64,000 nt of DNA, taken from contig NC_086108.1 of NCBI RefSeq assembly GCF_963921235.1, positions 49,230,001 to 49,294,000 on the forward strand, in the 5' to 3' direction. Shown piece after piece: positions 4,611-58,428 of this stretch. Under the pieces are notes generated by a model. That model ran no database searches and was not told the DNA's origin. It was given only the letters and a program-made list of their open reading frames with translations. The stretch is from Mobula hypostoma (taxonomy: Eukaryota). Position 1 is the first letter of the stretch, and each line of letters opens with the position of its first letter. A program made the translations under genes and the position numbers.

Positions 4611-4740
4611 GGTCCTTCTGAAGGGTCTTGGCCCGAAATGTTGACTGTACTCTTTTCCACAGATGCTGCCTGGCCTCCTGAGTTCCTCCGGTATTTTGTG
4701 TGTGTTGCTTGGATTTCCAACATCTGTAGGTTTTCACTTG
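4611..4740 (+). mobile_element. PLE terminal-repeat fragment (degenerate hammerhead)
   Basis: gaagggtcttggcccgaaatgttgactgt...gatgctgcctggcc...gtgtgttgcttggatttcc, as in the other PLE ends. Confidence 0.8.
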
Positions 4741-4824
4741 ATTGTGATTTGACTACCTCATTATTCCTTTCTTTTTGCATTATCTAATATTTTGTGATTC
4801 ATAGCAAGTTTCTGCATTCATCAA

Positions 4825-8784: not shown

Positions 8785-10340
8785 TATTGGATATTTGAAA
8801 TAAAAATACTGGAAATCCTTGTCAGATCAGACAGTATCTGAGAGAGTAAAAATGAGTTAGTGTTAGAGGTTAATGATCTTCTACCAGAATTGGTCAGTTC
8901 TGACCCATGTACAATAAGCTGTTTATATGAAATGGTTGAGCAAACCTGAGGGTTGCAGTGTTTGGAGAGAAGATGAGGTGCTGTACTTTGAGCTTGTGTT
9001 GAAAATTGTATTGGAAGCCAGAGACCTTGTGCGGGAGAGAAGTGATGAGCAACTAGAATCTCAAGGTCAGCCTTCTGAACTGGCTGCAGAATAATCATCC
9101 AGTCTACATTTTGTTCCCCATTGTGGAGGAGATCACCTCTTGAGCATCAGATGGAATTCACTAGTTTGGAATTACTCCTTCACCTGGAAACTCTGTTTAG
9201 GTTACTGGATGGTTGAAAGACATGAAGTAAAAGAGCAAACATGAGGAAATCTGCAGATGTTGGAATTTCAAGCAGCACACATAGAAGTTGCTAGTGAACG
9301 CAGCTGGCCAGGCAGCATCTCTAGGAAGAAGTATAGTCGACATTTCGGGCCGAGACCCTTCGTCAGGCTGTGCCTCCAACCTGATGGCATGAACATTGAC
9401 TTCTCTAACTTCCGTTAATGCCCCACCTCCCCCTCGTACCCCATCCGTTGTTTATTTATTTATTATTGTGCGTGCAGGTGTGTGTGTGTATATATATATT
9501 ATTCTTTTTCTCTCTCTCCTTTTTCTCCCTCTGTCCCCTCCCCCCCACCCCCCCCCGCTATACTCCTTGCCCATCTTCTGGGTTCCCTCTCCCCCTTTCT
9601 TGCTCCGTAGGGCTCCCGTCCCATGATCCTCTCATATCCCTTTTGCCAATCAACTGTCCAGCTGTTGGCTCCACCCTCCCCCTCCTGTCTTCTCCTATCA
9701 TTTCGGATCTCCCCCTCCCCCTCCCCCTTTCAAATCTCTTACTAACTCTTCCTTCAGTTAGTCCTGACGAAGGATCTCGGCCTGAAACGTCAACTGTACC
9801 TCTTCCTGGAGATGCTGCCTGGCCTGCTGCGTTCAGCAGCAACTTTTATGTGTGTTGCTTAAGTAAAAGAGCAAATGCATTTACACAGGAAAATGCTCTG
9901 AGAGGTGGAGTGGTTGATGGAAATGTAAGAGTTAACTAGGGAGTCACTGAGGGAATGTTCCCTTGGAAATGCTGAAGTGGAAGAAGAGTGGAAGATATGT
10001 TTGGTGAATGAATCCCTTTGAAATGTGCATAAATCGAAGGATAATCTGTTGAATGTGGAGGTTGGTTGGGTGAAGGTGAGGTCAGCGGATCTTTCTTCCT
10101 GTCCTGACCGGGAAGAGACGAGGGTAAGAACGGACGAGCAGGAAATTGAACAAATGCATTTGAGAACCTGACATCTGTGGTTGTGAGACAAAGATATCTC
10201 AGAAGCATCACGGAAAATAAGCAGATTTAAAGCAAGCAGGGAAGCTGGGAAAATGGGATGGATCCTTTTGGGAGCAGCGGAAGAGCAGTTAAGGTAACTG
10301 GGGGGGCCTGAGGGTTTTTAGTGGTTTCTATTCTATGTTG
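8785..10340 (-). mobile_element. Old PLE, interrupted by a younger PLE palindrome
   Basis: ORF 9859-10191 (FQRDSFTKHIF..SAFPREHSLSDSLV) is homologous to the PLE ORF at 24460-24759. Confidence 0.7.
9240..9860. mobile_element. Inverted-repeat PLE insertion
   Basis: Left arm 9240-9367 is the reverse complement of the right end; flanking direct repeat aagtaaaagagcaaa at 9225-9239 and 9861-9875. Confidence 0.9.
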
Positions 10341-14238: not shown

Positions 14239-14684
14239 TTGGCTACTTCGTCCGTAAGCTTTTATGTTATTAAACAAATCATGTCTAACAGACAGTGAAA
14301 AATGTTTCACACTACTATTGGCCATTGTAAATGATGACAGTGATGCAAAGAGCAGCTGTACTGAGTTCCACTAATATCCCTCAGCAGGCTATTCATGTAT
14401 GAGTCACCAGCATAAGGCAAGAAGTTGGGTTGACTGTACCCCATACTTCAGCCTCTTTCAACTAGGTTGGTAGCTGTGGATCTAATCTATGATAGTAAAA
14501 TGTTATCCTGGAGAGCAGGCCTCCTCGATTATGGGGAAACAATATATTTTTATCACAGTTTAACCTCATTGTATAATTGCAGTTTTGGTCTGTAATTTTA
14601 TTTTATGTTTGAACCTTGATTATTTTTATAAATGACTTTGTAGATCAGTCACTCAGCTATTGATTTTGGTAGGTAATGGTTCAT

Positions 14685-15826
14685 CCACTTCTCCTCCATT
14701 TCCCGGACATCCAAGCTCACCCCATCTTCCTGCCGCCTTAACAGGGATAGAGTTCCTCTCATCTTCACCTACCAACCCGTGAACCTCCACATTCAACACA
14801 TCACTTCCACCATCTTCAATGGGACCCTACCACCAAACACAACTTTTACTTACCCCCCCCCACCACTCTCCACTTTCCACAGGGATCACTCCCTCCATGA
14901 TTCCCTTGTCCATTCATTCCTCCCCCACCAATCTCCCCCGTCACTTATCCCTGCAAGCCACAGATGTGCAGCACTTGCCCTTTCACTTCTTCCCTCACTT
15001 CCATTCGGGGCCCTAAACAGTCCTTCCAGGTGAATCAGCACTGCACCTGTGAATTTGTTGGGACTGTCTACTGCAGTTTCAGTCCCCATTCCCATTCTGA
15101 CACCTTGGTTGATGGCCTTCTCTTCTGCCATGAGAGGCCACTCTCAAGTTGAAGAAGCAACATCTTTATATACTTTATACTTTATTGTCGCCAAACAATT
15201 GATACTAGAGTGTACAATCATCACAGCGATATTTGATTCTGCGCTTCGCGCTCCCTGGAGTACAAATTGATAGTAAATATTAAAAATTTAAATTAGAAAT
15301 CATAAATAGAAAATAGAAAAGGGAAAGTAAGGTAGTGCAAAAAAAATCTTGTACTCTTGTCTAGATGGCCTCCAGCCTAATGGCATGAACATCAATTTCT
15401 CCAACTTTTGGTATTTTTCCCCCTTCTCTCTTCATTCCCCCATTCTGGACTCTTGCCTCTTCTCAGCTGCCTATCACCCCCTGGTGCCCCTCCTCCTTCC
15501 CTTCGATGATCTACTCCCCTCTGTATAAGATTCCTTCTCCAGCCCTTTGCGTTCCACTTACTTACCACTGCTTTCTTACTTCATACCCACCCTCCCCCAT
15601 CCACCTGGCTGCCACCACCTAGCACCTTCTACCTTGTCCTCTTTTTTTTCCCTTCCCCCGCCGCCTTATTCTGACATCTTCCCCTTCCTTTCCAATCCTG
15701 ACGAAGGGTTGCGGCCCAAAACGTCGTCTATTTATTCATTTCCATAAATGCTGCCTGACCTGCTAAGATCCCTCAGCATTTTGTGTGTGTTCTGGATTTC
15801 CAGCAGCAACAGGATCTCTTGTGTTT
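14685..15826 (+). mobile_element. 5'-truncated PLE (RT-EN linker, degraded GIY-YIG, terminal repeat)
   Basis: STFHRDHSLHDSLVHS and CSTCPFTSSLTSIRGPKQSFQV motifs; hammerhead-like CTGACGA..cccAAAACGTC at ~15698-15725. Confidence 0.85.
15167..15345 (-). mobile_element. Short LINE 3'-end insertion with (ATAAAGT)n tail
   Basis: Interrupts the PLE; atctt duplicated at 15162-15166 and 15346-15350. Confidence 0.6.
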
Positions 15827-18054: not shown

Positions 18055-18522
18055 CATAAGAGAGGAACAGAATTAGGTCCTTCGGCCCATCTGCTCTGCC
18101 CTGCCATTCAATCATGGCTGATTTATTATCCCTCTCAACCCCATTCTCTTGTCTTCTCCTCACAACATTTGATGCTGTTATTAATCAAGAACTATTCAAC
18201 CTCAGCTTTAAATATACCCAGCGACTTGGCTCCCATAGCCATCTATGGCAGTGAACTCCATAGATTCACGAACCTCTGGCTAAACAAATTCCTCGTCTCT
18301 GCAACACTCTCCAGATGCTGGAGGAACTCAGCAGGCCAGATAGCATCTGTGGAAAAGAGTCTAGTCTCTGTTTCTGGCCGAGATATCCCCTCTGTTCTAA
18401 AGGGATATCCTTGTATTCTGAGACTGTGCCCTCTGGTCCTGAACTCCTTCTCTATAGGAAACATCCTCTCAGCAACACTCTATGAAGGCCTTTCAGTATT
18501 CAATCAGTTTCAGTGAGATCCC
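18055..18522 (-). mobile_element. CR1 3' end containing a ~85 bp PLE-end insertion (18301-18385)
   Basis: ORF 18243-18464: RTRGHSLRI..PFRTE [insert] RNLFSQRFVNLWSSLP. Confidence 0.8.
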
Positions 18523-18609
18523 TGAATAGTCGAACAATTGAGAGGAAAATATTTGACTCCCAAGGAATGCAGTGTTAACTTAATTGAGGAACAGAACATG
18601 GATATTCAA

Positions 18610-18874
18610 GCAACACACATCAAAGTTGCTGGTGAACGCAGCAGGCCAGGCAGCATCTCTAGGAAGAGTTACAGTCGACGTTTCGGGCCGAGACCCTTCG
18701 TCAGGGCAAGATTTCTCTTACTAGCTCTTCCTTCAGTTAGGCCTGTCGAAGGGTCTCGGCCCGAAACGTCGACTGTACGTCTTCCTAGAGATGCTGCCTG
18801 GCCTGCTGCGTTCACCAGCAACTTTGATGTGTGTTGCTTGAATTTCCAGCATCTGCAGAATTCCTCGTGTTTAC
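18610..18874. mobile_element. Mini inverted-repeat PLE insertion
   Basis: Arm 18605-18705 is the reverse complement of 18742-18843; atattcaa at 18602-18609 and 18875-18882. Confidence 0.85.
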
Positions 18875-19100
18875 ATATTCAAAGAACTCTTATTTGAGAA
18901 CATTTTAATTCCACATCCCATTCCCATTCTGATATGTCTATCCACAGCCTCCTCTACTGTCAAGATGAAGCCACACTCAGGTTGGAGGAACAACACCTTA
19001 TATTCCGTCTGGGTAGCCTCCAACCTGATGGCATGAACATTGACTTCTCTAACTTCCGTTAATGCCTCTCGTACCCTATCCGTTATTTATTTATTTTATA

Positions 19101-19145
<45 letters not shown>

Positions 19146-19351
19146 TCTCCTTTTTCTCCCTCTGTCCCTCTCACTATACTCCTTGTCCATCCTCTGGGCT
19201 TCACCCCTTCCCCATTTCTTTCTCCCTAGGCCTCCCATCCCATGATCCTCTCATCTCCCTTTTGCCAATCAACTGTCCAGTGCTTGACTCCATCCCTCCC
19301 CCTCCTGTCTTCTCCTATCATTTTGGATCTCCCCCTCCCCCTCCCACTTTC

Positions 19352-19958
19352 TTTTTCTTTTTAAATCTTTTTATTGATAAGTATACAAAAAGGTAAGCCA
19401 TATAGGCACTAATACACTGTTAGAATATAATAAAATTACAGAAGATATTAATACAAAAAAAATACTACAATGTAATTTAAACATAACGTACCAAGGTAAC
19501 ATAATAGTATACTAATTTTTATATATATATCAATAGAGAAAAGGAAAAAAAAACCCCAAAAAAACCCACCGTGCAACTAACTAAAAGCAAAGCAAAGCAA
19601 TGGGCTAACTTGAAACCAAACAGAGTTAAAAAACTTAAAATCACGTCCTCAATCCCGACCTCCATTAAAAACAGTAAAAAAAAACAAGAAGGGTATATAT
19701 TACATTAAATGAAAATATTGAATAAAAGATCTCCAGGTCTGTTCAAATTTAAATGAGGAGTCATAAAGATTGCTTCTAATTTTCTCCAAATTCAAGCATA
19801 ATATCGTCTGAGAGAACCAAAAAAAGGTAGATGGAGCATTGAGCTCTTTCCAGTGTTGTAAGATACATCTTTTCGCCACTAAAGTAAGAAATGCAATCAT
19901 TCTACGGGCTGAAGGGGAAAGATTACTGGAAATTTTAGGTAGTCCAAAGATAGCAGTA
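19352..19958 (-). mobile_element. 5'-truncated L1-clade LINE
   Basis: ORF2 C-terminus (AKRCILQHWK..P..W..LEKIR..FEQTW), polyA tail, TSD cccactttc at 19343-19351 and 19959-19967, TTTC/AAA target. Confidence 0.9.
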
Positions 19959-19995
19959 CCCACTTTCAAATCTCTTACTAGCTCTTCTTTCAGTT

Positions 19996-20031
19996 AGTCC
20001 TGACGAAGGGTCTCGGCCTGAAACGTCGACT
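19996..20031 (+). ncRNA. Minimal type-I hammerhead ribozyme motif
   Basis: AGTC-CTGACGA-AGG(GTCTCGG)CCT-GAAA-CG-TC^-GACT: stem I, core, stem II, palindromic ACGT in place of stem III. Confidence 0.8.
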
Positions 20032-20882
20032 GTACCTCTTCCTAGAGATGCTGCCTGGCCTGCTGCGTTCACCTGCAACTTTGATGTGCGTTGCTTGAAA
20101 TTCCAGCATCTGCAGATTTCCTTGTGTTTGAGAAATTCATTTGGTTTAAGTGATGAAAGAGTGAATGTGGATTTGCAAAGGATACAAAATTTTTATGCCA
20201 AATTAGCATCTATATTAGAGAGAGACTACTGACAGTAGGTGAGAAGTATCCTTGGATCTTTTTTCAAACTCAAATTACAGAGATAAAAGTACAAGCATTC
20301 ACATTATGCATCGTACCGCAACTGTCAAGAAATGAATTCCATAGTTGGAGTTGCTTGTTTTTGAACGTAGGTCAAGATTCTCATGAAGTTCTGTTTACAG
20401 TGTTCATCTGACTTCTATTTCTTTTCTCCAATGAACTACATATTGTCTGTCCGGTTCTGACCCATTTTGGCCATTTTTGTCCTGTCACAGCTGGACATTT
20501 GGCTTCCACGTCACACATTATGTAACAATCTAGTCATTGTTCTTGAGCCAAGTGGATAGAGAGGGACATGCAGTTGAATGCTTCTGACTGTTCAGACAGG
20601 AATTTCATTCACCACATGGGTTGCATGATCAAATCTCATCACTTGGCTGAGACTGTGGCTTTGAGTATCTCGTAGTTATCTCTTGTTGCAAAAGTAACAG
20701 CCTGTTCTTTACCTGCTTTTGAGGTCTTGAATGCCATTGGAGATGTCTGAGAGTGCTCCCGTTGTTCCTTATCTCACTTTAAGCAGATAGCCATTTTTCA
20801 AAGAATTAGGCCTTTGAGTCTGTTAGTAAAGTGAGTTAACCTCCCAATTTATGGCTGCTGTTTAGTAAAACAAATCCGAGTG

Positions 20883-20974
20883 CTGAAGGGTCTCGGCCCG
20901 AAACGTCGACTGTACCTCTTCCTGGAGATGCTGCCTGGCCTGCTGCGTTCACCTGCAATTTTTATGTGTGTTGC
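20883..20974 (+). mobile_element. Very short PLE terminal fragment
   Basis: Near-identical to 20005-20095; truncated within the hammerhead core. Confidence 0.85.
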
Positions 20975-22456
20975 TATATTGCAATACTGTCCACTAATTT
21001 ATGCCAGATTAGTTCATCATGATCAGTTAATCCCAATTAATTTGTTACTATCTTCTTGATTATCTTCCCAACATTTGTGGAGAACTACACATTTATCACA
21101 CCATCTTCAAGTGGAAATCCTACCATGTGGAAAACTACCCTCTGCTACCTTTTCCCCAGTAAGTGGCTGAAGAATGCTGTGGGCAACAGTATATACTCTC
21201 AAGTGTCTGAAATTGAAACACTTTTGCTTTCCCAATTCTGAAATTATTGATTGCTTTTGATCCTCTGACTGTCACCGAGTAGAGTTTTGTAAGCTCTGGG
21301 AGGAAACTTTGAAGTTGCTGTTGTGAGAAAATTTGGCAACATGGAATAGACAGAAAGTTAAATTAGTGCATATACATGGGTAGGAAAGGTTCTTAAAGTT
21401 GTGCTGAAATAGAATTAGGTGTTTAAATGCAATCTGCTGAAAACACAAGTGTATTTGTTCAGCTGGTTGCCTTCAGCCCCAGGGCAGATTGTGGCAAGTC
21501 CTGCATGAGATTCTTGAGCTGCTTTATAATTGGAAATAGTAGCTGAGGTAGTTTCCCATTACAATCATCCAGGTTATTTTCAGAATACCAAGAGGCTAGC
21601 CAATGATTAAAAAACACCAAGCCCTCTTTATTTTCTTTTTGATATTATGAATTCTACCTTTTTGTTTTACATCACTGCTGTGAAGCCACATTTTTGTTTT
21701 TGATACGTTCAGGATCCTCTGAGGAGAATATGGCTACTGCTGCTGCCTACTCCTTTGATTTTGGGACCAACACACTAACTCTTGGTCAGAATTAAGAAAA
21801 CAGTGGGCCATCTTCCTGAAAAATAAATATATTTGGCTAATGCCAACACACAAACAAGTAAGATTTGGACTTCTGTAAACTTAATCAGGAAAGCAATCAT
21901 CACATAGAATTCTATATTAAAGAACTGAGTTACAGATCAGCTTTGAAGGGGTAAAATGAGACTGGTGAAGTTAGTTGTAGATTGAAGTAATAAAGATTTA
22001 TTATTCAAAGACATTCATCTGTGCTTTAATCTGTAATGATTTGCAGAAGATTATTGAAATACACACAATCTGAAATGATGAATGGAAAATCAATAAAAAT
22101 GATTAGAGCAATGTGCAGAAATCCACCCTATACTTGCCACACCACTCTCAAGTTCCAAAATTCTGAAAGCAAAGTACTGTCATATTTCATATGATTGGTT
22201 GGAAAAGATTAGCTTGAACTTTACTTTTAACTCTGGGGAATACATTGATATCTTATTTTGGCACAGTTGCATGAATGAGCTTCGGCTGTCAGGATTACTT
22301 TTAATATACGCGAGTTTAATGTAGCCCCTGTTTGAATACATTGATGAATAATTGTTGCAGTAGTAACGAGAAATTACTGTCTTAAGGATGGAATTTTATT
22401 GGTATCTTCAGACTGACCTGTTTTCCTGAAATATTTTATATCGTTTCAAATTATCG

Positions 22457-23644: not shown

Positions 23645-24766
23645 TCAAGAGAAAATCTGCAGGTGCTGGAAATCTACGCAACACACACAACATGTGGGAG
23701 GAACTCAAAAGGCCAGTTAGTGTCTATGGAAATGAGTACAGTCGACATTTTGGGCCAAAACCCCTCAACAGGACTGGAGGGAAAAAAAAGAAGAAGAGTA
23801 GAGTTAAAAGGTGTGGGAAGGGAGGGGAAGCACATGGTGACAGGTGAAACTGGGAGGGGGAGGGGTGAAGTAAAGAGCTGGGAAGTTGATTGGTGAAAGA
23901 GATGCAGAACTGGAGAAGAGGAGTCTGGAGAGGACAGAAGACCATGGAAGAAAGAAAAGGAGAGGAGCACCAGAAGGGGGGGATGGGCAGGCAAGGAGAT
24001 AAGGTGATGGGGAATGATGAAGGGGGATGGAGGCATCACCGGAAGTTCACGAAATTAGTCTTCATGCCATTAGGTTGGAGGTTACCCGGACAGAATATAA
24101 GGTGTTGTTCCTCCAACCTGAGTGTGGCCTCATCATAACAGCAGAGGAGGCCATGGGTAGACACATGGGAATGGGAAGTGGAATTAAAATGGATGGCCAG
24201 TGGGAGATCTTTTTCTGGCGGATGGAGTGTAGGGGCTTGGTGAAGCGATCTCCCAGTTTACGTTGGGCCTCACCGATATACGGGAGGGCACACCGGGAGC
24301 ACTGGGCACAGTACGTGACCCCAACAGAGTCCCAGGTGAAGTGTTGCCTCACTTGGAAAGACTGTTTGTGACCCTGAATGGATAAGTACCAGAAGGGGCT
24401 CTTCCCCACCCCCCCCCAACTTACTGCTTTCCGCAGGAATCACTCCCTACCCGACTCCCTTGTCCATTTGTCTCTCCTCGCTGATAATCACGTACCATCC
24501 CACCAGCCTCTACGCCCAGCACATAATTCTCCACAACTATCGGCATCTCCAATGGGATCCCACCACCAAGCATATCTTTCCCTCCCCTCCACTTTCTGCT
24601 TTCCACAGTTATTGCTCCCTGCGCGACTCCCTTGTCCATTCGTCCCTCCCCACTGATCTCCCTCCTGGCACTTACCCTTGCAAGTGGAACAAGTGCTACA
24701 CCTGCCCTAACACCTCCTCCCTCACTACCATTCAGGGCCTCAAACAGTCTTCCAGGTGAGGCAACA
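23645..24766. mobile_element. PLE with inverted 5' segment; GIY-YIG endonuclease remnant
   Basis: Minus ORF 24062-24409 GVTYCAQCSRCALPYIGEAQRKLGDRF (GIY-YIG); plus ORF 24460-24759 TYHPTS..LQWDPTTKHIFPSPPLSAF..GTYPCKWNKCYTCP. Confidence 0.9.
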
Positions 24767-25177
24767 ATTTTTGTCTCCTCTTCCATGGTGTCAGTTTATC
24801 CAAGCTGCTTCCTTTTTGAGTGCGTTAGTAAAAATCAGCACAGTAAGTAGTCCTGCCAGCATAGTAGTTTTCAGGTCTTGCTCTTTTGAAGATTTGTATA
24901 CATGGTTGTAATTGTGACTTTGATATAATACCACACATCCTTTTTTCTGAAACTGAATTACATGCACAATTGGGTGCAGCTGGCGTGACATAAAATCTGT
25001 TTAAATAATAGTGATTTTTGTTCTTGGTTGTAACTGAGAAGGTGTAGGGAGTTTGCTTATGAACCTGACATGGGAAAAGGCCATTTCCCTTCCACTACCT
25101 CCCACCCCCAGAATCTTGCAACATTTCTTTCTCCTACCTTTTAACTCCTCTTTGATTATCTAACTATATATGTGTGG

Positions 25178-26702: not shown

Positions 26703-27353
26703 GATCGAAAGGGAACTGTTTTTTTAAAGAGAAGCAACTTGCCATTTTTGTTAGTCTCTAGATCTATTTTCAGACATGATAAATCTTGTTAGTATATGGA
26801 TAATGAAGTTAACAAGTAATTGCTTTAAACCATTCATTGAATTTGGCACTCTAAACAATACCAAATTCAAATTTGTAGGAACATATCATGTCTTTTTGTT
26901 TGAACATTGAATCTAGCTGTAATTATCTCTTGCTTTTACACACCTTATTGCTTTTGATTTCATGATGGAAGTTGGCTTGGCACTAAAATTGTGATAATAG
27001 CTTGGTATAATTTGAGTGGAAAAATACCTTGGAGATGCAATTCAGTCATTTGCATTTATTTAGATTCTTTAAACTTATCGTTTTCATGTCATCATTTTCA
27101 CTGTTTGATTTACTCTTTATAATTCAAGGATTTGATCAGATATTTAGATAGAAGCTCTTAATTCACCTGAGAAATTAAATTCAAGGAGGATTTTGCAACA
27201 TAAGTTAGTTTATTTAAGTATGATTTCGACAGCCGTGGAAATCTAAAATTGTTTACACAAACAGGAATTCTGCAGATGCTGGAAATTCAAGCAAAACACA
27301 TCAAAGTTGCTGGTGAACGCAGCAGGCCAGGCAGCATCTGTAGGATGAGGTGC

Positions 27354-27389
27354 AGTCGACGTTTCAGGCCGAGACCCTTCGTCAGAACT
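27354..27389 (-). ncRNA. Minimal hammerhead ribozyme motif
   Basis: Minus strand: AGTT-CTGACGA-AGG..CCT-GAAA-CGTC-GACT (one G.U pair in stem I). Confidence 0.75.
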
Positions 27390-27748
27390 AACTGAAGGAA
27401 GAGTGAGTAAGGGATTTGAAAGTTGGAGGGGGAGGGGGAGATCCAAAATGATAGGAGAAGACAGGAGTGGGAGGGATAGAGCCAAGAGCTGGACAGGTGA
27501 TAGGCAAAAGGGGATACGAGAGGATCATGGGACAGGAGGTTCGGGAAGAAAGACAAGGGGGGGGGGAACCCAGAGGATGGGCAAGAGGTATATTCAGAGG
27601 GACTGTCCCATGATCCTCTCGTATCCCCTTTTGCCTATCACCTGTCCAGCTCTTGGCTCTATCCCTCCCCCTCCTGTCTTCTCCTATCATTTTGGATCTC
27701 CCCCTCCCCCTCCAACTTTCAAATCCCTTACTCACTCTTCCTTCAGTT

Positions 27749-27784
27749 AGTCCTGACGAAGGGTCTCGGCCTGAAACGTCGACT
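27749..27784 (+). ncRNA. Minimal hammerhead ribozyme motif
   Basis: Identical to 19996-20031. Confidence 0.8.
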
Positions 27785-28049
27785 GCACCTCTTCCTACAG
27801 ATGCTGCCTGGCCTGCTGCGTTCACCAGCAACTTTGATGTGTATTGTTTACACAAAGATTGGCAAGGCTAATCTGACAATTGAAAATCCCAAAACTGGAC
27901 GTTGTTGGCAAGGATAGTGAGAGTTTGAAACTGTGGAAAGCAGAGCTGAGATATGCCGCTGTGATAATCTAATTGAATGTGGAAATAGGCTTGAATGTAT
28001 GAAGTTATCAAACTGACATTAAAAAATAGAAAACTGCAAAAGACAGGAA

Positions 28050-28717: not shown

Positions 28718-29903
28718 CAGCAACACACACAAAATGCTGGTGGAACGCAGCAGGCCAGGCAGCATCTATAGGAAGAAGTACAGTCGACGTTTTGGGTCAA
28801 GACCCTTCATCAGGACTAATGGAAAAAAGAGATAGTAAGAGATTTGAGAGGGGGAGGGGGAGACCCAAAATGGTAGGAGAAGACAGGAGGGGGAGGGATG
28901 AAGCCAAGAGCTGGGAAGTTGATTGGCAAAAGGGATACAAGGCTGGAGAAGGGGGAGCATCATGGAACGGAAGGCCTTGGAAGAAAGAAAGGGGGAGGGG
29001 AGCACCAGAGGAAGATGGAGAACAGGCAAGGAGTTATTGTGAAAGTGAAAGAGAGAAATAAATAAATAAATAATAAATTAGGGATGGGGTAAGAAGGGGA
29101 GGAGGGGCATTAACGAAAGTTAGAGAAGTCAATGTTCATGCCATCATGTTGGAGGCTACCCAGACGGAATATAAGGAACATGTTCCTCCAACCTGAGTGT
29201 GGCTTCATCATGACAGTAGAGGAGGCCATCGATTGACATGTGGGAATGGGACGTGGAATTAATATGTGTGGCCACTGGGAGATCCTGCTTCCTCTGGCAG
29301 ACAGAGCGTAGGTATTCAGCGAAGCGGTCTCCCATTCTGATATGTCAGTCCATGGCCTGCTGTACTGTCGTGATGAAGCCACGCTCAGGTTGGAGGAACA
29401 ACACCTTATATTCTGTCTGGGTAGCCTCCAACCTGATGGCATGAACATTGATTTCTCTAACTTCCATTAATGCCCCTTCTTACCCCACCCTTATTTATTT
29501 ATTTATTTATTCTTTCTTTCTTTCTTTCTCTCTTTCCCTCTCTCAATAACTCCTTGCCTGTTCTCCATCTTCCTCTGGTGGTCCCCTCCCCATTTCTTTC
29601 TTCCAATGCCTTCCACCCCATGATACTCCCCCTTCTCCAGCCTTGTATCCCTTTTGCCAATCAACTTCCCAGCTGTTGGCTTCATCCCTCCCCCTCCTGT
29701 CTTCTCCTGTCATTTTGGGTCTCCCCCTCCCCCTCCCACTTTCAAATCTTTTACTATCTCTTTTTTCCATTAGTCCTGATGAAGGGTCTTGACCCAAAAC
29801 GTCAACTGTACTTCTTCCTATAGGTGCTGCCTGGCTTGCTGTGTTCCACTAGCATTTTGTATGTGTTGCTTGAATTTCCAGCATCTGCAGATTTTCTCGC
29901 GTT
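28718..29903. mobile_element. Long PLE palindrome (~530 bp arms)
   Basis: 28719-29245 inverted against 29331-29868; TSD tgcatataact at 28707-28717 and 29904-29914. Confidence 0.93.
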
Positions 29904-30030
29904 TGCATATAACTAAGATTTTTTCCTATAATATTTGTTGTAGCACTTTAAGTTTGTTTACCAATGATGAGGAATCACCATGAGTTATCATCTTGACTCA
30001 GATGTAGTTCAGCTGGGGTATTAGATAATA

Positions 30031-30398: not shown

Positions 30399-31750
30399 GA
30401 TCCCTGAGGCACACCACTGGTCAACGACCTCCATGCAGAATATGACCCGTCTTTGCCTTCTGTGGGCAAGCCAGTTCTGGATCCACAGAGCAATATCCCC
30501 TTGGATCCCATGCCTCCTTACTTTCTCAATAAGCCTTGCATGGGGTACCTTGCAAATGCCTTGCTGAAATCCATAAACACTACATCTACTGCTCTATCTT
30601 CATCAATGTGTTTAGTCACATCCTCAAAAAATTCAATCAGGCTCGTAAGGCACGACCTGCCTTTCGCAAAGCCATGCTGACTATTCTTAATCATATTATG
30701 CCTCTCCAAATGTTCATAAATCCTGCCTCTCAGGATCTTTTTTATCAGCTTACCAACCACTGAAGTAAGGCGCACTGGTCTATAATTTCCTGGGCTATCT
30801 CTACTCCCTTTCTTGAATAAGGGAACAACATCTGCAACTCTCCAATGCTCCAGAACCTCTCCCATCCCCATTGATGATGCAAAGATCATCGCCAGAGGCT
30901 CAGCAATTTCCTCCTTCGCCTCCCACAGTAGCCTTTGGTACATCTTGTCCGGTCCCGGTGACTTATCCAATTTGATGCTTTCCAAAAGCTCCTGCACATC
31001 CTCTTTCTTAATATCTACATGCTCAAGCTTTTCAGTCCGCTGTAAGTCATCCCTACAATTGCCAAGATCCTTTTGCGTCATGAATTCTGAAGCAAAGTAC
31101 TCATTGAGTAACACACATCAAAGTTGCTGGTGAACGCAGCAGGCCAGGCAGCATCTCTAGGAAGAGGTACAGTCAGCAACTTTGATGTGTGTTGCTTGAA
31201 TTTCCAGCATCTGCAGATTTCCTCGTGTTTACTTATTAAGTACCTCTGCTATCTCCTCTGTTTCCATACACACTATTCCAGTGTCACACCTGATTGGTCT
31301 TATTCTCTCACATCTTATCCTGTTGCTCTTCACGTACTTGTAGAACGCCTTGGGGTTTTCCTTAATCCTGTCTGCCAAGCCCTTCTCATGGCCCCTTCTG
31401 GCTGTCCTAATTTCTTCCTTAAGCTTCTTCCTGCTAGCCTTATAATCTTCTAGATCTCTATCAGTACCTAGTTTTTTGAACCTTTTGTAAGCTCTTCTTC
31501 TTGACTAGATTTACAACAGCCTTTGTACACCACAGTTCCTGTATCCTACCATTCTTTCCTTGTCTCATTGGAACGCACCTGTGCAGAACTCCACACAAAT
31601 ATCCCCTGAACATTTGCCACATTTCTTCCGTACAGTTGCCTGAGAACATCTGTTCCTAATTTATGCCTCCAAGTTCCTGCCTGATAGCCTCGTACTTCTG
31701 CTTACTCCAATTAAATGCTTTCCTAACTTGTCTGTTCCTGTCCCTCTCCA
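30399..31750 (-). mobile_element. CR1 LINE RT N-terminal region
   Basis: ORF 30518-31114: KSPGPD..PLFKKGSRDSPGNYRPV..SQHGFAKGRSCLTSL..DFSKAF. Confidence 0.93.
31111..31229. mobile_element. ~120 bp PLE-end palindrome lacking the ribozyme, inside CR1
   Basis: Flanked by tactcattgagta / tacttattaagta (31098-31110, 31230-31242). Confidence 0.85.
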
Positions 31751-39862: not shown

Positions 39863-42817
39863 TTCTAACTGGCTGCATCACCATCTCGTATGGGAGGCGG
39901 GGTTGCTACTGCACAGGATTGAAATAGGCTGCAGAGAGTTGTAAACTTAGCCAGCTCCGTCATGGGCACTCGCCTCTGTGCTGTCCAGGATATCTTTAAG
40001 GACTGATGCTTCAAAAAGGTGGCATCCATCTTTAAGGACCCCCATCACCTAGGACATGCCCTGTTCTCATTGTTACCATCAGGAGGGTGGTGCAGAAGCC
40101 TGAAGGCATACACTCAAGGAATCAGAAATAGCTTCTCCCCTCTGCCATTATTTACTGTGATTCAGTTTTTTCTTCTCTATTATTTACTGATTGTACTGAT
40201 GTGGCAAAGACAACGTATTGCAGAACTTATGCTGGTGATATTAAATCTGATTCTGAGTTTTGAGAGCATGATGGTATTGAATACTGAGCTGCAGTCGATA
40301 AAGAGCATTCTGATGTATGCACCTTTGCTGCCCCGATGTTCGAGGGTTGGGTGAAGAGCCATTGAAATTCTATCTGCTGTAGACCTGGAGATCCGGTAGG
40401 CAAATTAGAGCTGACCTAAGTCACTTCTCAGGCAGGAGTTGATTTGTTTCATCAGCAAACTCTTAAACCATTTCTTCAGAGTGGATGTAAGTGCTACTGG
40501 GCAACAGTCATTGAGTCAGGTCACCACGTTCTTCTTGGGTACCGGTTTAATTGATGCCTGCTTGAAGCAGGTGGCTACCCCACACCACCGAAGCTAGAGG
40601 TTAAAGATCTCAATGAACACTCCAGCCAGTTGATCAGCACAGGTCTCTTGTACTTGGCCAGGTGGCCCATCTGGGCCGGATGCTTTTCGTGGGTTTACTC
40701 TCCTGAAGGTTGCTAGCATGTTGGCTTCAGACACTGAAATCACAGGAACACTGGGGATGTAGGAGTTTTTGATAGTTCCTTCATGTTTTGACAAAGTGAG
40801 CATAGAAAGCATTGAGCAGATCTGGCAGCAAAGCCCTGTTGTCACCTACGTTATTTCATTTAACTTTATAAGAGGTGATGATTGTATTCAAGCCCTGCTA
40901 CAATTGTCGAGCACGCTTTGTTGTTTCAAGTTTGGTCCGGAATTGCCACTTCGCCCCTGAGATGACTTTCTGGAGATCGTACCTGGATCTCTTGTAACTT
41001 CCATGGTTACCAGACTTGAATGCCTCTGATCTGGCTCTCAGCAGATTGTGGATCTCACTGTTCATCCAGGGCTTCTGACTGGGGAAGAATGAATGACTTT
41101 GTGGGAACACTCTCTTGTATATAGCTGTTTTAATGAAGTCCATTATAACCATGGTGTATTCATTCCGATCCATAGATGAGTCCTTGAACACAGCCCAATC
41201 CATTGACTTGAAGCAGTCCCATTGCCGCTTGTGTGCTTCCTGTGACTATCTTTGTTATCCTAGTCTTTGGAGCTGTGCTCTTTAGCCTCTGCCTGTGTGC
41301 AGGTAGGAGAAGGACCGCCAAGAGATCCGATTTACTGAAATGCGATCTGGGCATGGTATGGTAAGCATTCCTTATCTTACTGTAACAGTGGTGTGTTGTG
41401 TTGGGACCTCTGATGCTACAGGTTGCATGCTGTTGGTGGTTGGGCAGGATTTTCTTCAAACAAATCTGGTTGAAGACTATGATTTGAAATGTATTGAGTG
41501 TGCTGTTTCTTGTATGGACGTGCAATAACGCGAGCGCTTGATTACATTCGGCCACTGGTGGTATTTAAACTCCGCTGAGGATCACGGGTGAGAATTCTCT
41601 GGGCAAGTAGAATGGACGACATTTGACCATTAGGTGTTCTAGGCCGGGGGAGCAGAGTTTGATAAAACCGCCGCATCAGAGCACCACTGAGAGTTCAACG
41701 TGAAACACACACCTCTACCTTTTGCCTTTTCCGAATGTGCAGTGTAGATTGTAGCAATGCTGCTGATTGGGTTTTGTAGAATGGTTGGGATTTTATATTG
41801 AATTGATTATGTTTTGGCTGCTGTCCTGGTAAACTCCACAGGTTGCTCCATTCTATTTATAGTTTCGAGTCCTGGGTGGTTGCAGTTGGCATTGTTGACT
41901 TTTCTAATATTATGATTTTATAACTGCATTTACAAGTCCAGTAAGTAAATATTGTATGAAATGTATGAAATTATTTCAGTGTATGTTTGTTATTTTCCCC
42001 ATCATTGCACCTTGAGTGTTTTTGAATAGTTTCCAAAAGGTAAAGCTTAAATTTTGTTTGAAAGCCCATTTCCCATTGTTCCATTTTCATACTTGTGCAT
42101 TGCAGCATGGTTATAACAGTATATTTGTGTTTTGTCATAGTTATAAATTTAGAAAATGTGATAGACACAACATGTACAGGTTAGAAGACATTCTGATAAA
42201 AATCAACGGACTAACGTGAATATTTTAAACCTAGTTCATAATGGCTCCTGCTCTTTTCTGTCATATAATGTGCTTTCTTTTTTGCTTATCTATTTAGTGC
42301 AAGAATTTTTGAAAGTGTGGAATTACAATTCTTTATCACTTTATGGATCACTGCTACTGCACATTCTGTTTAGTCTGCTTGTTATCATAATTATTGTTGC
42401 ATGTATTGTCAAGACAGGCATAACTTTTTAAAATTAATTTATATTTTTGTGTTTTGAAGTTTTGAGATTTTAAAGTTCTTCAGAAGTATAACTTAACTAT
42501 TTTTATGTAGAGGTGCAGTTCCCATCAGGCAAATTATCCAACATTGCAAAACATTGCATCCTTTTCATCTGCATGAACCAGGCAGTGCTGTTAAAATTTA
42601 ATGCATCTGATGAAAATAAATACAATTATAGGTTGTAAGATATGTCCTTTTGGTGTATCCAAAGGGGAAGACTGCACTGTGACTCTAAAATTAGTGTACT
42701 TGAAGAAATGCCACTGGCATGGCATTGGCAAAGGCATAACCCCCTGGGCAGAGAATAGAGGAATGCATGTTTGAAGTGAGAGCAAAACACAAGATTGATC
42801 TAAAAGCAATACTGAAT

Positions 42818-42976
42818 AACACTCACAAAATGTTGGAGGAGCTCAGCAGGTCAGGCAACATCTATGGAGAGGAATAAAGAGCTGACGTTTTGGGCTGAGA
42901 CCCTTCACACTGGCCCAAAACATTGGCTTTTTATTCCTCTCCATAGATGCTGCCAGAGCTGCTGAGTTCCTACAAC

Positions 42977-43015
<39 letters not shown>

Positions 43016-43052
43016 CACTGGATTTCTAGCATCTGTGGAAACACTGGTGTTT
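42818..43052. mobile_element. PLE mini-palindrome with expanded (TG)n
   Basis: Inverted ctcagc..catctatggagaggaataaa arms; taaaagca at 42801-42808 and 43054-43061. Confidence 0.75.
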
Positions 43053-46955: not shown

Positions 46956-48016
46956 ATCAGAATCAGGTTTATTATCACCGACATGTGTCGTGAGATTTGT
47001 TAGCTTAGCAGCAGCAGTTCAATGCAATACATAATGTTGAAGAAGAAGAAAAATAATAATAAATCAATTTACAGTACACGTATATTGAATAGATTGAAAT
47101 CATGCAAAAAACAGAAATAATTATATATTTCAAAAAGTGAGGTAGTGTTCACAGGTTCAGTGTCCATTTAGGAAACGGATGGCAGAGAGGAAGAAGCCGT
47201 TCCTGAATTGCTGACTGTGTGCCTTCAGGCTTCTGTATCTCCTATCTGATGGTAAAAGTGAGAAAGGAGAATGCGCTGGGTGCTGGAGGTCCTTAATTAT
47301 AGACGCTGCCTTTCTGAGACACCGCTCCTTGAAGATGTCCTAGGTTCTTTGTAGGCTACTACCCAAGAGGGAGCTGACTAAATTTACAACCCTCTGCAGC
47401 TTCTTTTGGTTCTGTGCAGTAGCCCTCCCCCCCACCATACCAGACAGCAATGCAGCCTGTCAGAATGCTCTCCATGGTCCATCTATGGAAGTTTTTGAGT
47501 GTATCAAACTGCTAATGAAGTATAGCCACTGTCTTGCCTTCTTTATAACTGCATCAATATGTTGGGACCAGGTTAGGTCCTCAGAGATCTTGGCACTTGA
47601 AACTGCTCACTCTCTCCACTTCTGATCCCTCTATGGGGATTGGTATGTGTTCCTTTGTCTCATCCTTCCTGAAGTCCACAATCAGCTCTTTCACCTTACT
47701 GATATTGAGTGCAAGGTTGTTCCTGTGACACCACTCCATTAGTTGGCATATCTTGCTCCTGTACACCCTCTCATCTCCATCTGAGGTTCTACCAAAAATG
47801 GTCATAATATCAGCAAAATTTATAGATGGTGTTTGAGCTATGCCTAGCCACAAGTCATGGGTATAGAGAGAGTAGAGCAGTGGGCTAAGCACACACCCCT
47901 GAAATGCACCAGTGTTGATCATCTGCGAGGAGGAGATATTATCACCAATCCGCACAGATTGTGGTCTTCTGGTTAGGAAGTCAAGGATCCAATTGCAGAG
48001 GAGGTACAGAGGCCCA
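46956..48016 (-). mobile_element. Rex1 LINE 3' half with (CTGATT)n tail
   Basis: ORF 47581-47955 [24 protein letters not shown]. Confidence 0.9.
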
Positions 48017-48578
48017 TGACCAATGCATCCATCATTTCATCAGCAACCTGTCTTGGGACTCTGGAATGTAGTCCATCTGCTCTAGGTGACTTATCCATCC
48101 TAAGACATTTGAGTTTGCCTTACACTTTTTCCTTGGTAATAGCAATGGCATTCAGTCCTGCTCCCTGACACTCATGAACCTCTGGCACATTGCTAGTGTC
48201 TTCCTCAATGAAGACTGATACAAAGTACTTATTAAGTTCATCTGCCATTTCTTTGTCCTCCATTATTACCTCACCGGCATCATCTTGCAGTGGTCCAATC
48301 TCAACTCTCACCTCCCTTTTACTCGTTATATAATTGACAAAACTTTCGGTATCCTGCTTTATTTTATTGGCAAGTTTGCCCTCATATTTCATCTTTTCCC
48401 TTATTGCTTGTTTCAGTTGCCTTTTGTTGGATTTTAAAAGCTTCCCAATCATCCAACTTCCCACTCACTTTTGCTTCTATATATGCCATTTCCTTGGCTT
48501 CTATGCAGTCCTTAACTTCACTTGTCAACCATCGTTTCTATCCTTGCCATTAAAGAACAACTTCGTCTGTAGGACTTA

Positions 48579-49464: not shown

Positions 49465-52400
49465 GCCCCTTCAGGTTCTGTACCCCTTCCCCTGATGGCA
49501 GTAATGAGAAGAAGGCAGTCCAGGATTGTGAGGGTCCTTAATGATGGATGCCGCTTCTTGAGACACCTGTCTTGAAGATGACCTTGATGATGGGGAGGGT
49601 TGTGCCAGTGATGGCCTTGGTTGAATCTACAATCCTCCACAGCTTCTGTGATCCTGTACTTTTGAGCCTACATTCCAGGCAGCGGCAATACAGCAACTAG
49701 GTGCGCTCTACTATATATCGATATAAATTTGGAAGTCTTTGGTGACGTACGAAATCTCCTCCATCTCCTAATGAAGTAGAGCTGCAGGTATTCCTGCGTG
49801 ATTGCAATAATGTGTTGGGCTTGGTACAGATCCTCAGAGATGTTGGCACCCAGGAACATAAAACTGCTCACCTTTTCCATTGGTGATCCCTCAATGTGGA
49901 CTACTACCTGTTCTCCTAAATTCCCCTTCCTAAAGTCCACAAAGCTTTGGTTGTGCTGACACTGAGTGTGAGGTTGTTGTTGTGACGCCACTCAACCAGC
50001 CAATCTCTCCTAACCATTTATAGATCCTCGTTACCATCTCAGATTTTACCAAGCATAGTGATGTTGTCTGTAAGCTGTGCTTAGCCACACAGTGATGAAT
50101 GTAAAAAGAGTAGAGCAGTGGGCTAAGCACATGTCCTTCAAGTGTGCCTGTGTTGATTGTGAGTGAGGAGGAGACGTTATCACTGACTGTGGTCTCCTGA
50201 CGAGGATGTTGAGGAAAATGAGAAAAAATCTGCAGATGCTGGAAATCCAGGCAACACACACAAAATACTGAAGGAACTCAGCAGGCTAGGCAGCATCTGT
50301 GGTAAAGAGTACAGCCCAACCTTTTGGGCTGAGACCCGTCATCAGGACTGGGGGAAAAAAAATGAGGAATCAGAGATAGAAGGTGGGGGGCTTTCTAACA
50401 TACGGAGTTAGAATATTGAAGATTCAGTTGCAGAGGGAGGTACAAAGCTGAGGTTTAGAAGCTTGGTGATTAATATTGAGGGGATGATGGGACAGAATGC
50501 CTAGTTGTAATCAATAAGTAACAGCCTGACATGTTTAGCTGTTGTCTAGGTGCTGTAAAGCCTAGTGGAGAGCCACTGAGATTTTACCTGCTGTAGAAAT
50601 TTGTGGTGGTAGGTATATTGCAGTGGGTCATAAGACCATAAGATATAGGAGCAAAAGTAGGCCATTTGGCCCATCTAGTCTGCTCCGTCATTCAATCATG
50701 GGCTGATCCAATTCTTTCAGTCATCTCCATTCCCTTGCCTTCTCCCCATACCCTTTGATGCCCTGGCTAATCAAGAACTTATCTATCTCTGCCTTAAATA
50801 CACCCAATGACATGGCCTCCACAGCCACTTGTGGCAACAAATTCCACAGTAATTTCTCCGCATCGCAGTCCTAAAAGGACGTCCTTTAATCCTGAAGTCA
50901 TGCCCCCTTGTCCTAGAATCCCCTACCATGGGAAATAGCTTTGCCATATCTAATCTGTTCAGGCCTTTTAACATTTGGTATATTTCTATGAGATCCCCCC
51001 TCATTCTCCTGAACTCCAGGGAATACAGCCCAAGAGCTGCCAGACGTCCCTCATACAGTAACCCTTTCATTCCTGGAATCATTCTCATGAATCTTCTCTA
51101 AACCCTCTCCAATGTCAGTATATCCTTTCTAAAATAAGGAGCCCGAAACTGCACACAATACTCCAAGTATGGTCTCACGAGTGCCTTATAGGGCCTCAAC
51201 ATCACATCCCTACTCTTACATTCTGTACCTCTAGAAACAAATGCCAACATTGCATTCACCTTCTTCACAACTGACTCAACCTGGAGGTTAACCTTTAGGG
51301 TATCTTGCACAAGGACTCCCAAGTCCCTTTGCATCTGCATTTTGAATTTTCTCCCCATCTAAATAGTAGTCTGCCCGTTTATTTCTTCCACCAAAGTGCA
51401 TGACCATACACTTTCCAACATTGTATTTCATTTGCCACTTCTTTGCCCATTCCCCTAAACTATCGAAGTTTCTCTGCAGGCTTTCTGTTTCCTCAACACC
51501 ATCCGCTCCTCCACTTATCTTTGTATCATCGGCAAATTTAGTCACAAATCCATTAATAGGATCCCTTTATTCCCACTCTGTTTTCTGCTGACCAGCCAAG
51601 TACACCATGTCTGCTGCATCTCCTTTGTCTACCCTGCTTGTAATTTCCTCAAAGAATTGCAGTAGGTTTGTCAGGCAGGATTTTCCTTTCAGGAAACTGT
51701 GCTGGCTTTGGCCTATCTTGTCATGTGCCTCCAGGTACTCCATAATCTCATCCCTAACAATCGATTCAAACAACTTCCCAACCACTGATGTCAGGCTAAC
51801 AGATCTATAGCTTCCTTTCTGCTGCCTCCCAAATAGCGGAGTAACATTTGCAATTTTTCAGTCATCCAGTACGAAGCCAGAATCTATCAAATCTTGAAAG
51901 ATCATCGTTAATGCCTCCGCGATCTCTCTAGCTACTTCCTTCAGAACCCGAGGGTGCATTCCATCAGGTCCAGGAGATTTATCAACCCTCAGATCATTAA
52001 GCTTCCTGAGCACCTTCTCAGTCATAATTTTCATTGTACAAACTTCACTTCCCTGACACTCTTGAATGTTTGGTATACTGCTGATGTCTTCCACTGTGAA
52101 GATTGGTGCAAAATATGCATTCAGTTCCTCTGCCATCTCTACATCTCTCATTATAATATCTTTATAATTCCTTGCTAAAGCAGGAATTAATTCTAGCCAT
52201 AACCAACCTCGCGAATCTCTTCTTTATTGAAAATGTGAGTGCCACCAGTCAATTGTCATTGAGGCTGCTCTCCCTGGTCGTCTTGTGCATTGGTATGATT
52301 GCTGCCCTTTTGAATCAGGTGGGAACCTCAGACCATAGAAGTGAGAGGTTGAAGATGTCCTGAATAGTCCAGCCAGTTGCTCAACCTAAGTTTTCAATAC

Positions 52401-55099: not shown

Positions 55100-55257
55100 A
55101 AAAAGAGGAGAAAATCTCTGCAGATGCTGGAAATCCAAGCAACACACACACAAAATACTGGAGGAACTCAGCAGCATCTCAACCCAAAACATCGACTGTA
55201 CTGTTTTCCATAGTTGCTGCCTGGCCTGCTGATTTCCTCCAGCATTTTCTGTGTGTT
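55100..55257. mobile_element. PLE mini-palindrome
   Basis: Inverted acacaaaatactggaggaactcagcag arms; ccttctctgtttt at 55082-55094 and 55258-55270. Confidence 0.75.
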
Positions 55258-55579
55258 CCTTCTCTGTTTTTCCTGTTTCATCATTATTTTATACACCCCA
55301 ATTATATTTCACCACTACTACTCTCATCGCACACAGGAGAACTATAGTTGATCCAAATTTTCTTCAGAACTATTTTTTTCTCAGTGCTGGCATCATGTTG
55401 GATCTCTCTTCAGCCTTACCAGTGCAATCACATCTTTCCTATCATGCTGTGACCAGATGTTTATGCACTGTTTGAAACTCACCATAAATTACCGTACAGA
55501 GAAAAAGCCTTTTGACCTACCTCATTGGCCAATCCTATGCTAATTTACTTTAGTTGGAGAAATTAGTTGGAGGGTGGTA

Positions 55580-56759: not shown

Positions 56760-56890
56760 AGGTGATGAAGGGCGTTGGCCTGAAACAACAACTCTTTTTC
56801 CTCTCCATGGATGCTGCCTGACCTGTTGAATTCCTCAAGCACTTTGTTTTGTGTTGCTCTGGATTCCAGAATCTGCAGAATCCCTTTTGT
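56760..56890 (+). mobile_element. Degenerate PLE terminal repeat
   Basis: tgatgaagggcgttggcctgaaac...gatgctgcctgacctg. Confidence 0.7.
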
Positions 56891-57274
56891 TGAATGCACT
56901 GTATAGTAGGGGTTAGGGTTAGAAGAACAATATTGTGGCCTAATAAGGTGGTTACAAACTATAAAGTGAGATGAAATCCTACTAAAAATCCTGCAGCAGA
57001 GCTTCTCAGCAGATGGGGAGCTGGAGGTTGTCATTTGTTGGGAAAACCAGACATAGAGATCCCTGAGACATGGTTACAAAGGTATTTACTAGGGACAGAA
57101 AAACTTGGACATACCTAATAAAGAGCACAAAAGTTAAATCCATATTCATCAATGTAAAAGATTTTTAGAAACGGCTCTGTTATATAAATAAGCACAAAAG
57201 AAGGATTGGATCTACTAAGGGGACAGGAACCAGAGCAAGTATGTGAGCATCTTGGTAATAGTCATCATATTATA

Positions 57275-58220: not shown

Positions 58221-58428
58221 CTGGAGAAAATCTACAGATGCTGGACGTCCAAGCAACACACACAAAATGCTGGAGGAGCTCAGCATGGTCTTGGCCCGAA
58301 ACATCGACTGTTAACTTTTTTTCCATTGATGATGCCTGGTCTGCTGAATTCCTCCAGTATTTTGTGTGTGTTGCTTGGATTTCCAGCATTTGCAGATTTT
58401 CTCTTTAGCATTTTGTGTGTATTGCCTG
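58221..58428. mobile_element. PLE mini-palindrome
   Basis: gagaaaatctacagatgctgg..cacacaaaatgctggagga inverted against 58350-58404. Confidence 0.8.

Follow-up and report, generated by a model that had tools for sequence, protein, structure and literature searches.

Minimal hammerhead ribozymes (min-HHRs) in the terminal repeats of metazoan Penelope-like elements (PLEs) were published by Cervera and De la Pena in 2014 (PMC4209133; this and the other articles cited are used for those parts of their text that were available), with the observation that min-HHR dimers alone cleave weakly, and small PLE-associated hammerheads with a very short palindromic stem III that cleave as dimers were described by Lunse, Weinberg and Breaker (via PMC6765202). 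In PAc, a Poseidon element of Anolis carolinensis, the hammerhead needs the element protein to cut, and ribozyme mutants still insert (Frangieh et al. 2024, PMC11167929). EN+ PLE units with an adjacent inverted, 5'-truncated copy were reported by Arkhipova et al. 2013 (PMC3846280) and Craig et al. 2021 (PMC8557442), who explained the tail of such units by endonuclease resolution and their inversion by self-priming on an antisense template, while Naiad PLEs proliferate without hammerheads and also form inverted units (PMC8557442). Most recently, non-LTR retrozymes were described as deriving from PLE terminal repeats and carrying a type-I hammerhead, with one chondrichthyan genome among their hosts (Li et al. 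2026, bioRxiv 10.64898/2026.07.22.740005). What PLE hammerheads do, and how the inverted, one-end-tailed structures arise, are questions stated as open in the available text of PMC8557442 and PMC11167929.

Here we analyzed a stretch of 64,000 nucleotides (the window) around a hammerhead-like motif with the letters AGTC CTGACGA A GGGT CTCG GCCT GAAA CG T C GACT, parsed as follows:

19996-20031, plus strand: minimal type-I hammerhead motif, found as a descriptor match, with its register taken from energies, pair counts and the consensus in PMC4209133
19996-19999 with 20028-20031, plus strand: stem I
20000-20006, plus strand: core CUGACGA, with the extra A at 20007
20008-20011 with 20016-20019, plus strand: stem II, with its loop at 20012-20015
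20020-20023, plus strand: GAAA, with the palindromic ACGU at 20023-20026 and C17 at 20027
20027/20028, plus strand: predicted cut

A strict type-I descriptor (3-bp stem I, CUGANGA, optional extra base, stem II, GAAA, palindrome of 0-4 nt, UH) applied to both strands of the window returned three matches, at 19996-20031(+), 27749-27784(+) and 27354-27389(-), which are exactly the three intact copies that an earlier sequence-only reading had named. That reading gave all three the same AGTC at the 5' side of stem I, which is correct for the two plus-strand copies; the copy at 27354(-) has AGTT, with a U-G pair closing stem I. In 200 dinucleotide shuffles the strict descriptor matched 0.005 times on average (maximum 1), and a loose pattern, CTGANGA-N(3-30)-GAAA, had 17 matches in the window against 7.05 expected, a number that none of 100 shuffles reached. 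We considered whether the match could be due to chance, since the Rfam scan of the window returned nothing at the gathering threshold, the folding z-score is near zero, and the three descriptor matches are copies of one repeat and therefore count as one event. However, a descriptor hit arises only once per ~200 shuffles, the site lies exactly where PLEs carry such a motif, and both position and consensus contradict coincidence, leaving the probability of a chance match close to nil. Scans of viral and metagenome contigs for degenerate forms of the motif yielded 0 loci.

The 15 further places listed earlier as variants all proved to be copies of the same family, none of which passes the strict descriptor. 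The G12>A change is found at 15698, 23745, 28782, 29772, 42885, 50315 and 55180, a mutated CUGA box at 4615, 18740 and 23745, and loss of the 5' strand of stem I or more at 9340, 18675, 20883, 42885, 55180, 56760 and 58290, with stem mismatches at 9760. Six additional arms, absent from that list, were identified at 18301-18383(-), 31107-31174(-), 31176-31230(+), 42912-43052(+), 55100-55174(-) and 58225-58285(-).

We prefer a parse with stem I AGUC/GACU, CUGACGA, an extra A, stem II GGGU/GCCY with a CUCG loop, GAAA, ACGU and C17, as this places G at 10.1 and fits the published consensus, in which a base separates positions 9 and 10.1 and G10.1 pairs with C11.1. The stem II proposed earlier (AGG, a 7-nt loop and CCU) is the less likely register, and the CCU of the focal copy is a minority variant. 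All three intact window copies carry U11.1, at a CpG site, giving a G-U pair; C11.1 is the majority state among the older window arms (10 of 11) and in sequencing runs X19 and X20 (83% and 67% of the depth, respectively). Among 11 aligned copies, 87% of the cells of the open 4-bp helix I (AGUC/GACU) are paired, and stem II is 100% paired with five one-sided changes. No two-sided change was found in the stems of these copies, and pairing was not above the shuffle control (473 of 500), in counts that come from decaying copies of one family and have little power for covariation. A candidate downstream stem (~+11 to +18 with +79 to +86) was rejected: it is 86% paired, with no two-sided change and with fold z-scores near zero.

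Helix III consists only of ACGU, so a monomer would be unable to close it and a dimer would be needed; the earlier proposal that cutting would take two copies agrees with the type-I minimal architecture seen here. The minimum-energy fold of the monomer pairs the core GACG with CGUC at -10.0 kcal/mol, and nearest-neighbour folding gives -9.5 kcal/mol for the active double hammerhead vs -20.0 kcal/mol for two monomers. These energies, which leave out the non-canonical pairs of the core and Mg2+, suggest no more than that the hammerhead may need help in folding.

The window motif and the min-HHRs of PMC4209133 have in common the type-I layout, CUGANGA followed by an extra base, the G10.1-C11.1 pair, the A-C-G-U to which helix III is reduced, palindromic at positions 15.2-16.2 and with no loop, a predicted cut after GUC and a 4-bp stem I. 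As in that study, most motifs lie singly on truncated copies, with opposite-strand pairs 100-700 bp apart. Its Acropora Neptune entry shares this layout, with a 4-bp stem II and a 4-nt loop, whereas the bony-fish and frog examples from Poseidon and Xena have a stem II of 7-8 bp in contrast to 4 bp here. The very short palindromic stem III is also shared with the Lunse small hammerheads, as they are described in the available text of PMC6765202. The sequence features that could be tested place the motif in the min-HHR class of PLE terminal repeats. This kind of ribozyme is already published, and its presence in the present PLE family is expected and ordinary in kind.

The claimed PLE origin is borne out by the ORF end, related to GIY-YIG, that lies upstream of the motif in six window copies, with tblastn stretches 50-85% identical to ray proteins and the GIY-YIG end directly upstream of the hammerhead. 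The 53 residues upstream of the focal motif match 7 of 11 candidate proteins, six of which are named from Mobula hypostoma and Hypanus sabinus (79-92% identity). These ray homologues comprise an RT thumb, a CxxxxCxxC linker and GIY-YIG, the last found in three of four of them with scores below the Pfam cutoff, and full-length relatives of the homologues gave 63 RVT_1 matches; the RT is thus known from the homologues rather than from within the window. A CX2-5CxxC linker is present in window fragments at 14799-15074 and 24481-24792 and is conserved in the homologue alignment. This Cys linker marks Neptune and Nematis elements alike (PMC8557442), and vertebrate PLEs are classed as Neptune or Poseidon, so that the putative assignment to Neptune follows from the linker motif and elimination, not from an RT tree. 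The linker also sets the family in another PLE clade than PAc (PMC11167929). No full-length element was seen; we infer an upstream repeat and a tandem structure for the source elements. Taken together, the motif is almost certainly the minimal hammerhead of a Neptune-type PLE, remaining in a ray-like genome within the 3' terminal repeat of copies that are 5'-truncated and dead on arrival.

We do not propose that the ORF overlaps the ribozyme: the frame is open through ribozyme and tail in young copies and is frameshifted in the older subfamilies. A Pfam scan covering 60 of the 119 stop-to-stop frames with at least 85 aa gave only RT and DDE fragments above the cutoff and pointed to no evident host gene. 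The regions 30521-31117, 47584-48036, 51570-51857 and 62101-62457 hold pieces of RT from other LINEs and of one DDE_3 transposase. In Hypanus, a gene model with the name "ATP synthase subunit C3-like" (P0003) has at its end the GIY-YIG C-terminus of the present element and is probably an annotation artefact or an exonised copy.

The family is represented in the window by 23 aligned arms belonging to 16 insertions, which together with ORF fragments amount to ~6,600 bases, or 10% of the window. The focal insertion and the remaining copies are as follows:

18901-20130, plus strand: focal insertion, a 5'-truncated single-armed PLE copy with ORF end, 3' untranslated part, hammerhead and tail, flanked by an 8-bp duplication (18893-18900 and 20127-20134)
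18901-19062, plus strand: final 53 codons of the PLE ORF with its stop, the C-terminal GIY-YIG part, 92% identical to P0001
19352-19958, minus strand: 3' end of an unrelated LINE with no Pfam hit, a later insertion splitting the focal copy, flanked by a 9-bp duplication (19343-19351 and 19959-19967)
20097-20130, plus strand: optional 34-nt tail, between the preferred 3' ends at ~+69 and ~+103 from the cut site
9236-9860: head-to-head I1, tailed arm 9367-9236(-), tail-less arm 9372-9860(+), 15-bp duplication (9225-9239 and 9861-9875)
18599-18872: head-to-head I2, tail-less arm (-), tailed arm 18714-18872(+), 8-bp duplication by eye (18602-18609 and 18875-18882)
27262-27849: head-to-head I3, tailed arm (-), tail-less arm (+), carrying the intact motifs 27354-27389(-) and 27749-27784(+), 14-bp duplication
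28718-29905: head-to-head I4 of a middle-aged subfamily, tail-less arm (-), tailed arm (+), both entering the ORF and both G12>A, 11-bp duplication
31107-31230: head-to-head I5 within another LINE, tail-less arm 31174-31107(-), tailed arm 31176-31230(+), 13-bp duplication with 2 mismatches
42815-43052: head-to-head I6 of an old subfamily, tail-less arm (-), tailed arm (+) with an expanded GT run, 8-bp duplication
55100-55261: head-to-head I7, old, tailed arm (-), tail-less arm (+), 13-bp duplication
58222-58428: head-to-head I8, old, with a tail on each main arm and then a short tail-less piece at ~58408-58428; a target duplication was sought and none found
23645-24766: old copy with GIY-YIG, hammerhead and tail at 24382-23645(-) and the ORF linker inverted alongside at 24481-24766(+)
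14683-15826, plus strand: old copy extending from the CxxxxCxxC linker through the tail, with an interruption at ~15175-15340, G12>A
4612-4742, plus strand: short single-armed decayed copy
18301-18383, minus strand: short single-armed decayed copy
20885-20975, plus strand: short tail-less young copy without the CUGA box
50218-50360, minus strand: single-armed old copy with an 8-bp duplication, G12>A
56763-56891, plus strand: single-armed old decayed copy

The LINE that splits the focal copy is, by its motif, one that we take to be L1-type. Loose ends behind 20130 were seen in three of four sequencing runs, among the matches listed. The old copy at 23645-24766 has about a dozen codons duplicated between the linker fragment and the endonuclease part and no target duplication at the boundaries tried; it may reflect an inversion with priming within the ORF, akin to L1 twin priming. 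I1 sits inside a much older PLE ORF relic at 9169-9243 and 9928-10167(-), recognized by weak tblastn matches (E 0.001 and 0.008), and I2 and the focal insertion lie ~10 bases apart between their target duplications (18602-18900).

Most copies do not reach 200 bp, with 5' ends concentrated at the ribozyme (p = 0.0015 under a uniform null that is crude), as might be expected if the repeats were an independent non-autonomous family, either SINE-like or a non-LTR retrozyme of the sort now reported from a chondrichthyan genome, rather than truncated transcripts of an autonomous PLE. Yet six copies enter the ORF and the 5' ends are staggered over more than 1 kb. Retrozymes are described in the available text of the preprint (bioRxiv 10.64898/2026.07.22.740005) as head-to-tail arrays with a hammerhead in each unit, whereas the window holds no head-to-tail arrays of full units, and we regard an independent family as highly improbable.

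We examined how the motif decays in three subfamilies and found that 3.4% (5 of 147) of the non-CpG core cells are off the majority, compared with 7.2% (20 of 279) of the stem and loop cells and 17% (217 of 1275) of the downstream cells, in counts that include non-independent twin arms and use a single majority for all three subfamilies, which inflates the downstream figure and overstates the contrast. The direction of this gradient, with the core least and the downstream part most divergent, would fit selection on source elements. CpG decay is alike in the core (8 of 35) and elsewhere (51 of 233). In X19 and X20, where shares are weighted by contig depth across related genomes and are not copy counts, G12>A has shares of 9.2% and 12.6%, inside or at the bottom of the ranges for four other CpG guanines (5.7-12.0% and 12.6-15.8%). 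G8 decays less than the other CpG guanines (2.8% in X19 and 7.5% in X20), for which the U7 present in 17-19% of copies accounts only partly. Since the catalytic CpG positions decay like other CpGs, the inserted genomic copies look neutral and dead on arrival. For the same reason, and because selection would act on source elements only, a test for conservation of the core among young genomic copies is ill-posed.

All eight young arms keep G12. Of the 11 older arms, which belong to nine insertions, eight (in six insertions) have A in its place, both arms of I4 and both of I6 among them, while C11.1>T is seen in one older arm only, versus the eight with G12>A (two-sided p ~0.13 by insertion). The excess of G12>A in older arms may reflect chance CpG decay or older sources that spread with a dead ribozyme. 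The latter would suit a motif kept for a role other than cutting, such as RNA folding, dimerisation, protein binding or a mere passenger, with negligible cleavage in vivo. To the G12>A twins of I4 and I6 can be added the unfavourable energy of the active fold, the continued insertion of PAc hammerhead mutants and, in the available text of PMC11167929, RNA-seq with no reads ending at the cut. Eight of nine Xenopus dimers also stayed uncleaved in vitro, Naiads lack hammerheads, and the authors of PMC8557442 raise the idea of hammerheads parasitising PLEs. Against a non-cutting role, the positions kept across subfamilies are the catalytic ones, G12 is unbroken in the young arms, identical boxes are kept in 40 animal species (PMC4209133), and PAc cleavage relied on C3-G8 pairing (PMC11167929). 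On balance we consider a non-cutting role unlikely, and prefer cutting in the transcripts of source elements.

The genomic copies themselves are a different matter. Paired motifs in the window lie on opposite strands, so a single transcript carries a motif and an antisense copy instead of a dimer partner, and close to the focal motif the same strand holds just two others, 18745(+), with A6>U, and 20885(+), without the CUGA box. Cleavage in cis by the copies found here is unlikely.

With respect to the template for insertion, 19 of the 23 arms cross the predicted cut and four start downstream of it, indicating that uncleaved RNA is the usual template. Among the 15 short arms, 10 start at -32 to -1, inside the ribozyme body. 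Loose ends just before 19996-19997 were considered as a 5'-truncation hot spot and set aside, as the consensus there ends in the upstream sequence of an older subfamily, making much of this an alignment break. One arm, 31174(-) of I5, starts at +1 with one base of ambiguity, and some joints in the run data adjoin the cut site: X1 and X3 each have one contig that goes from 20099 back to 20028, and X19 has one that goes from 20027 on to 20099. Such ends would be expected if cleaved or circularised RNA were the normal template, cut, ligated and copied for more than one unit, following Cervera and De la Pena, and religation would also let a cDNA cross the cut site. However, only 1 of 23 arms starts at +1, a single such arm among 15 has a substantial probability by chance, and the ten starts inside the ribozyme body speak against a cleaved end. 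The joints, for their part, are single contigs that share a GA dinucleotide at both ends, with the letters between them unknown, in data that reveal neither RNA ends nor strand. We judge cleaved or circular RNA very unlikely as the normal template. The 20099-to-20028 joint fits a jump off a cleaved 5' end and gives a weak hint of the occasional use of cleaved RNA.

The 3' ends cluster at either ~+69 or ~+95 to +103 from the cut, defining the tail of 34 nt as optional. Eight insertions are head-to-head pairs, seven of which have an 8-15 bp duplication of the target on either side (a script found five exact ones and one with 2 mismatches, and one was read by eye; the background chance of at least 8 bp is 0.019). 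In seven of the eight pairs exactly one arm is tailed, for which p is at most 0.035, given that an independent choice of start site caps discordance at one half; I8 breaks the one-tail rule by arm and keeps it by outermost end. In I1, I4, I5, I6 and I7 the tail-less arm extends further 5' than the tailed arm (in I6 by only ~10 nt), so each arm has sequence absent from the other and neither can simply have been copied from its partner; the tailed arm is the longer one in I2 and I3. Automatic reading of the central junctions (I1, I2 and I5) found four inserted letters in I1, eight in I2 and one shared letter in I5, while I3, I4, I6, I7 and I8 were read by eye owing to their divergence, giving four shared letters in I4 and I7 and a short palindrome in I3. 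By nearest neighbour, the arms of I3 and of I4 pair with each other and those of I1 do not.

This anatomy is shared with the EN+ PLE units of PMC3846280 and PMC8557442, which have head-to-head arms, a tail of 30-40 bp that is often confined to one end, duplications of ~8-10 bp and an occasional palindrome at the inverted junction, as in I3. It also has much in common with PAc (PMC11167929), namely internal RT starts past the hammerhead that define an optional tail, nicking and extension of both target strands (which we infer for the window family), an uncleaved RNA template and AT-rich targets. PAc starts 111-118 nt into its ORF, ~85-92 nt past the cut, compared with ends at ~+69 and ~+103 here, and the two window 3' ends, ~34 nt apart, parallel PAc, with its tail and its pair of RT start sites. 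The eight cases point to head-to-head pairs as two separately RNA-primed cDNAs from two start sites, not a simple fold-back, and the arm lengths fit this at least as well as the published account (PMC3846280, PMC8557442). Fold-back followed by trimming is a possible alternative source of the pairs.

Taken further, the reading of two primed cDNAs would have one RNP prime both nicked strands on RNA, one from each internal start site, with the 3' ends of the cDNAs end-joined and with each two-armed insertion receiving one arm with the tail and one without; in the boldest form of this, the palindromic hammerhead would pair two template RNAs for a dimeric protein. We offer this tentatively and doubt it more than we believe it; the role of the palindrome in template pairing is weakened by the Naiads, which form inverted units without hammerheads. 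If true, the tail would reveal by which subunit or template each strand was primed, rather than reflect trimming by the endonuclease.

As a whole, we consider the best explanation, which is probably correct, to be a PLE hammerhead with dimer cutting in source transcripts, insertion from uncleaved RNA and neutral decay, the mechanistic part of it being held with moderate confidence. In transcripts of source elements, two motifs would pair through the ACGU palindrome and swap stem I strands, forming a double hammerhead that cuts after GUC. A lone RNA would fold into an inactive hairpin, which the element's RT-endonuclease protein probably remodels, as in the anole element. Selection on source elements would keep the cut, probably for trimming multimeric or read-through transcripts, and insertion would not need it. 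The protein would nick both target strands 8-15 bp apart and reverse transcription of uncleaved RNA would begin at two internal sites, ~69 and ~103 nt beyond the cut; priming on one strand would give a single-armed copy, and priming on both a head-to-head pair with the tail on one arm. Inserted copies would then decay neutrally.

No description of this family from a shark or ray was found in the literature searched, and the family may nevertheless be in print or in Dfam or Repbase. The available parts of Table S1 and Figure S3 of PMC4209133 list no cartilaginous fish, and the chondrichthyan material of the 2026 retrozyme preprint may include a relative of the window family. A young and very abundant vertebrate Neptune family with clear target duplications offers many natural records of PLE integration. 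Both questions stated as open for PLEs can be addressed with it genome-wide, through the position of 5' ends relative to the cut site and through the tail status of paired arms.

We also observed a pyrimidine run followed by AG at the 5' edge of stem I (19985-19998 in the focal copy). This edge is found in 9 of the 10 copies that keep upstream sequence, across three subfamilies, and is a candidate 3' splice site. Two young arms share the start base -29 and differ in their upstream letters, with no common exon seen between them. The Penelope intron of D. virilis ends at the 5' end of helix I (PMC4209133).
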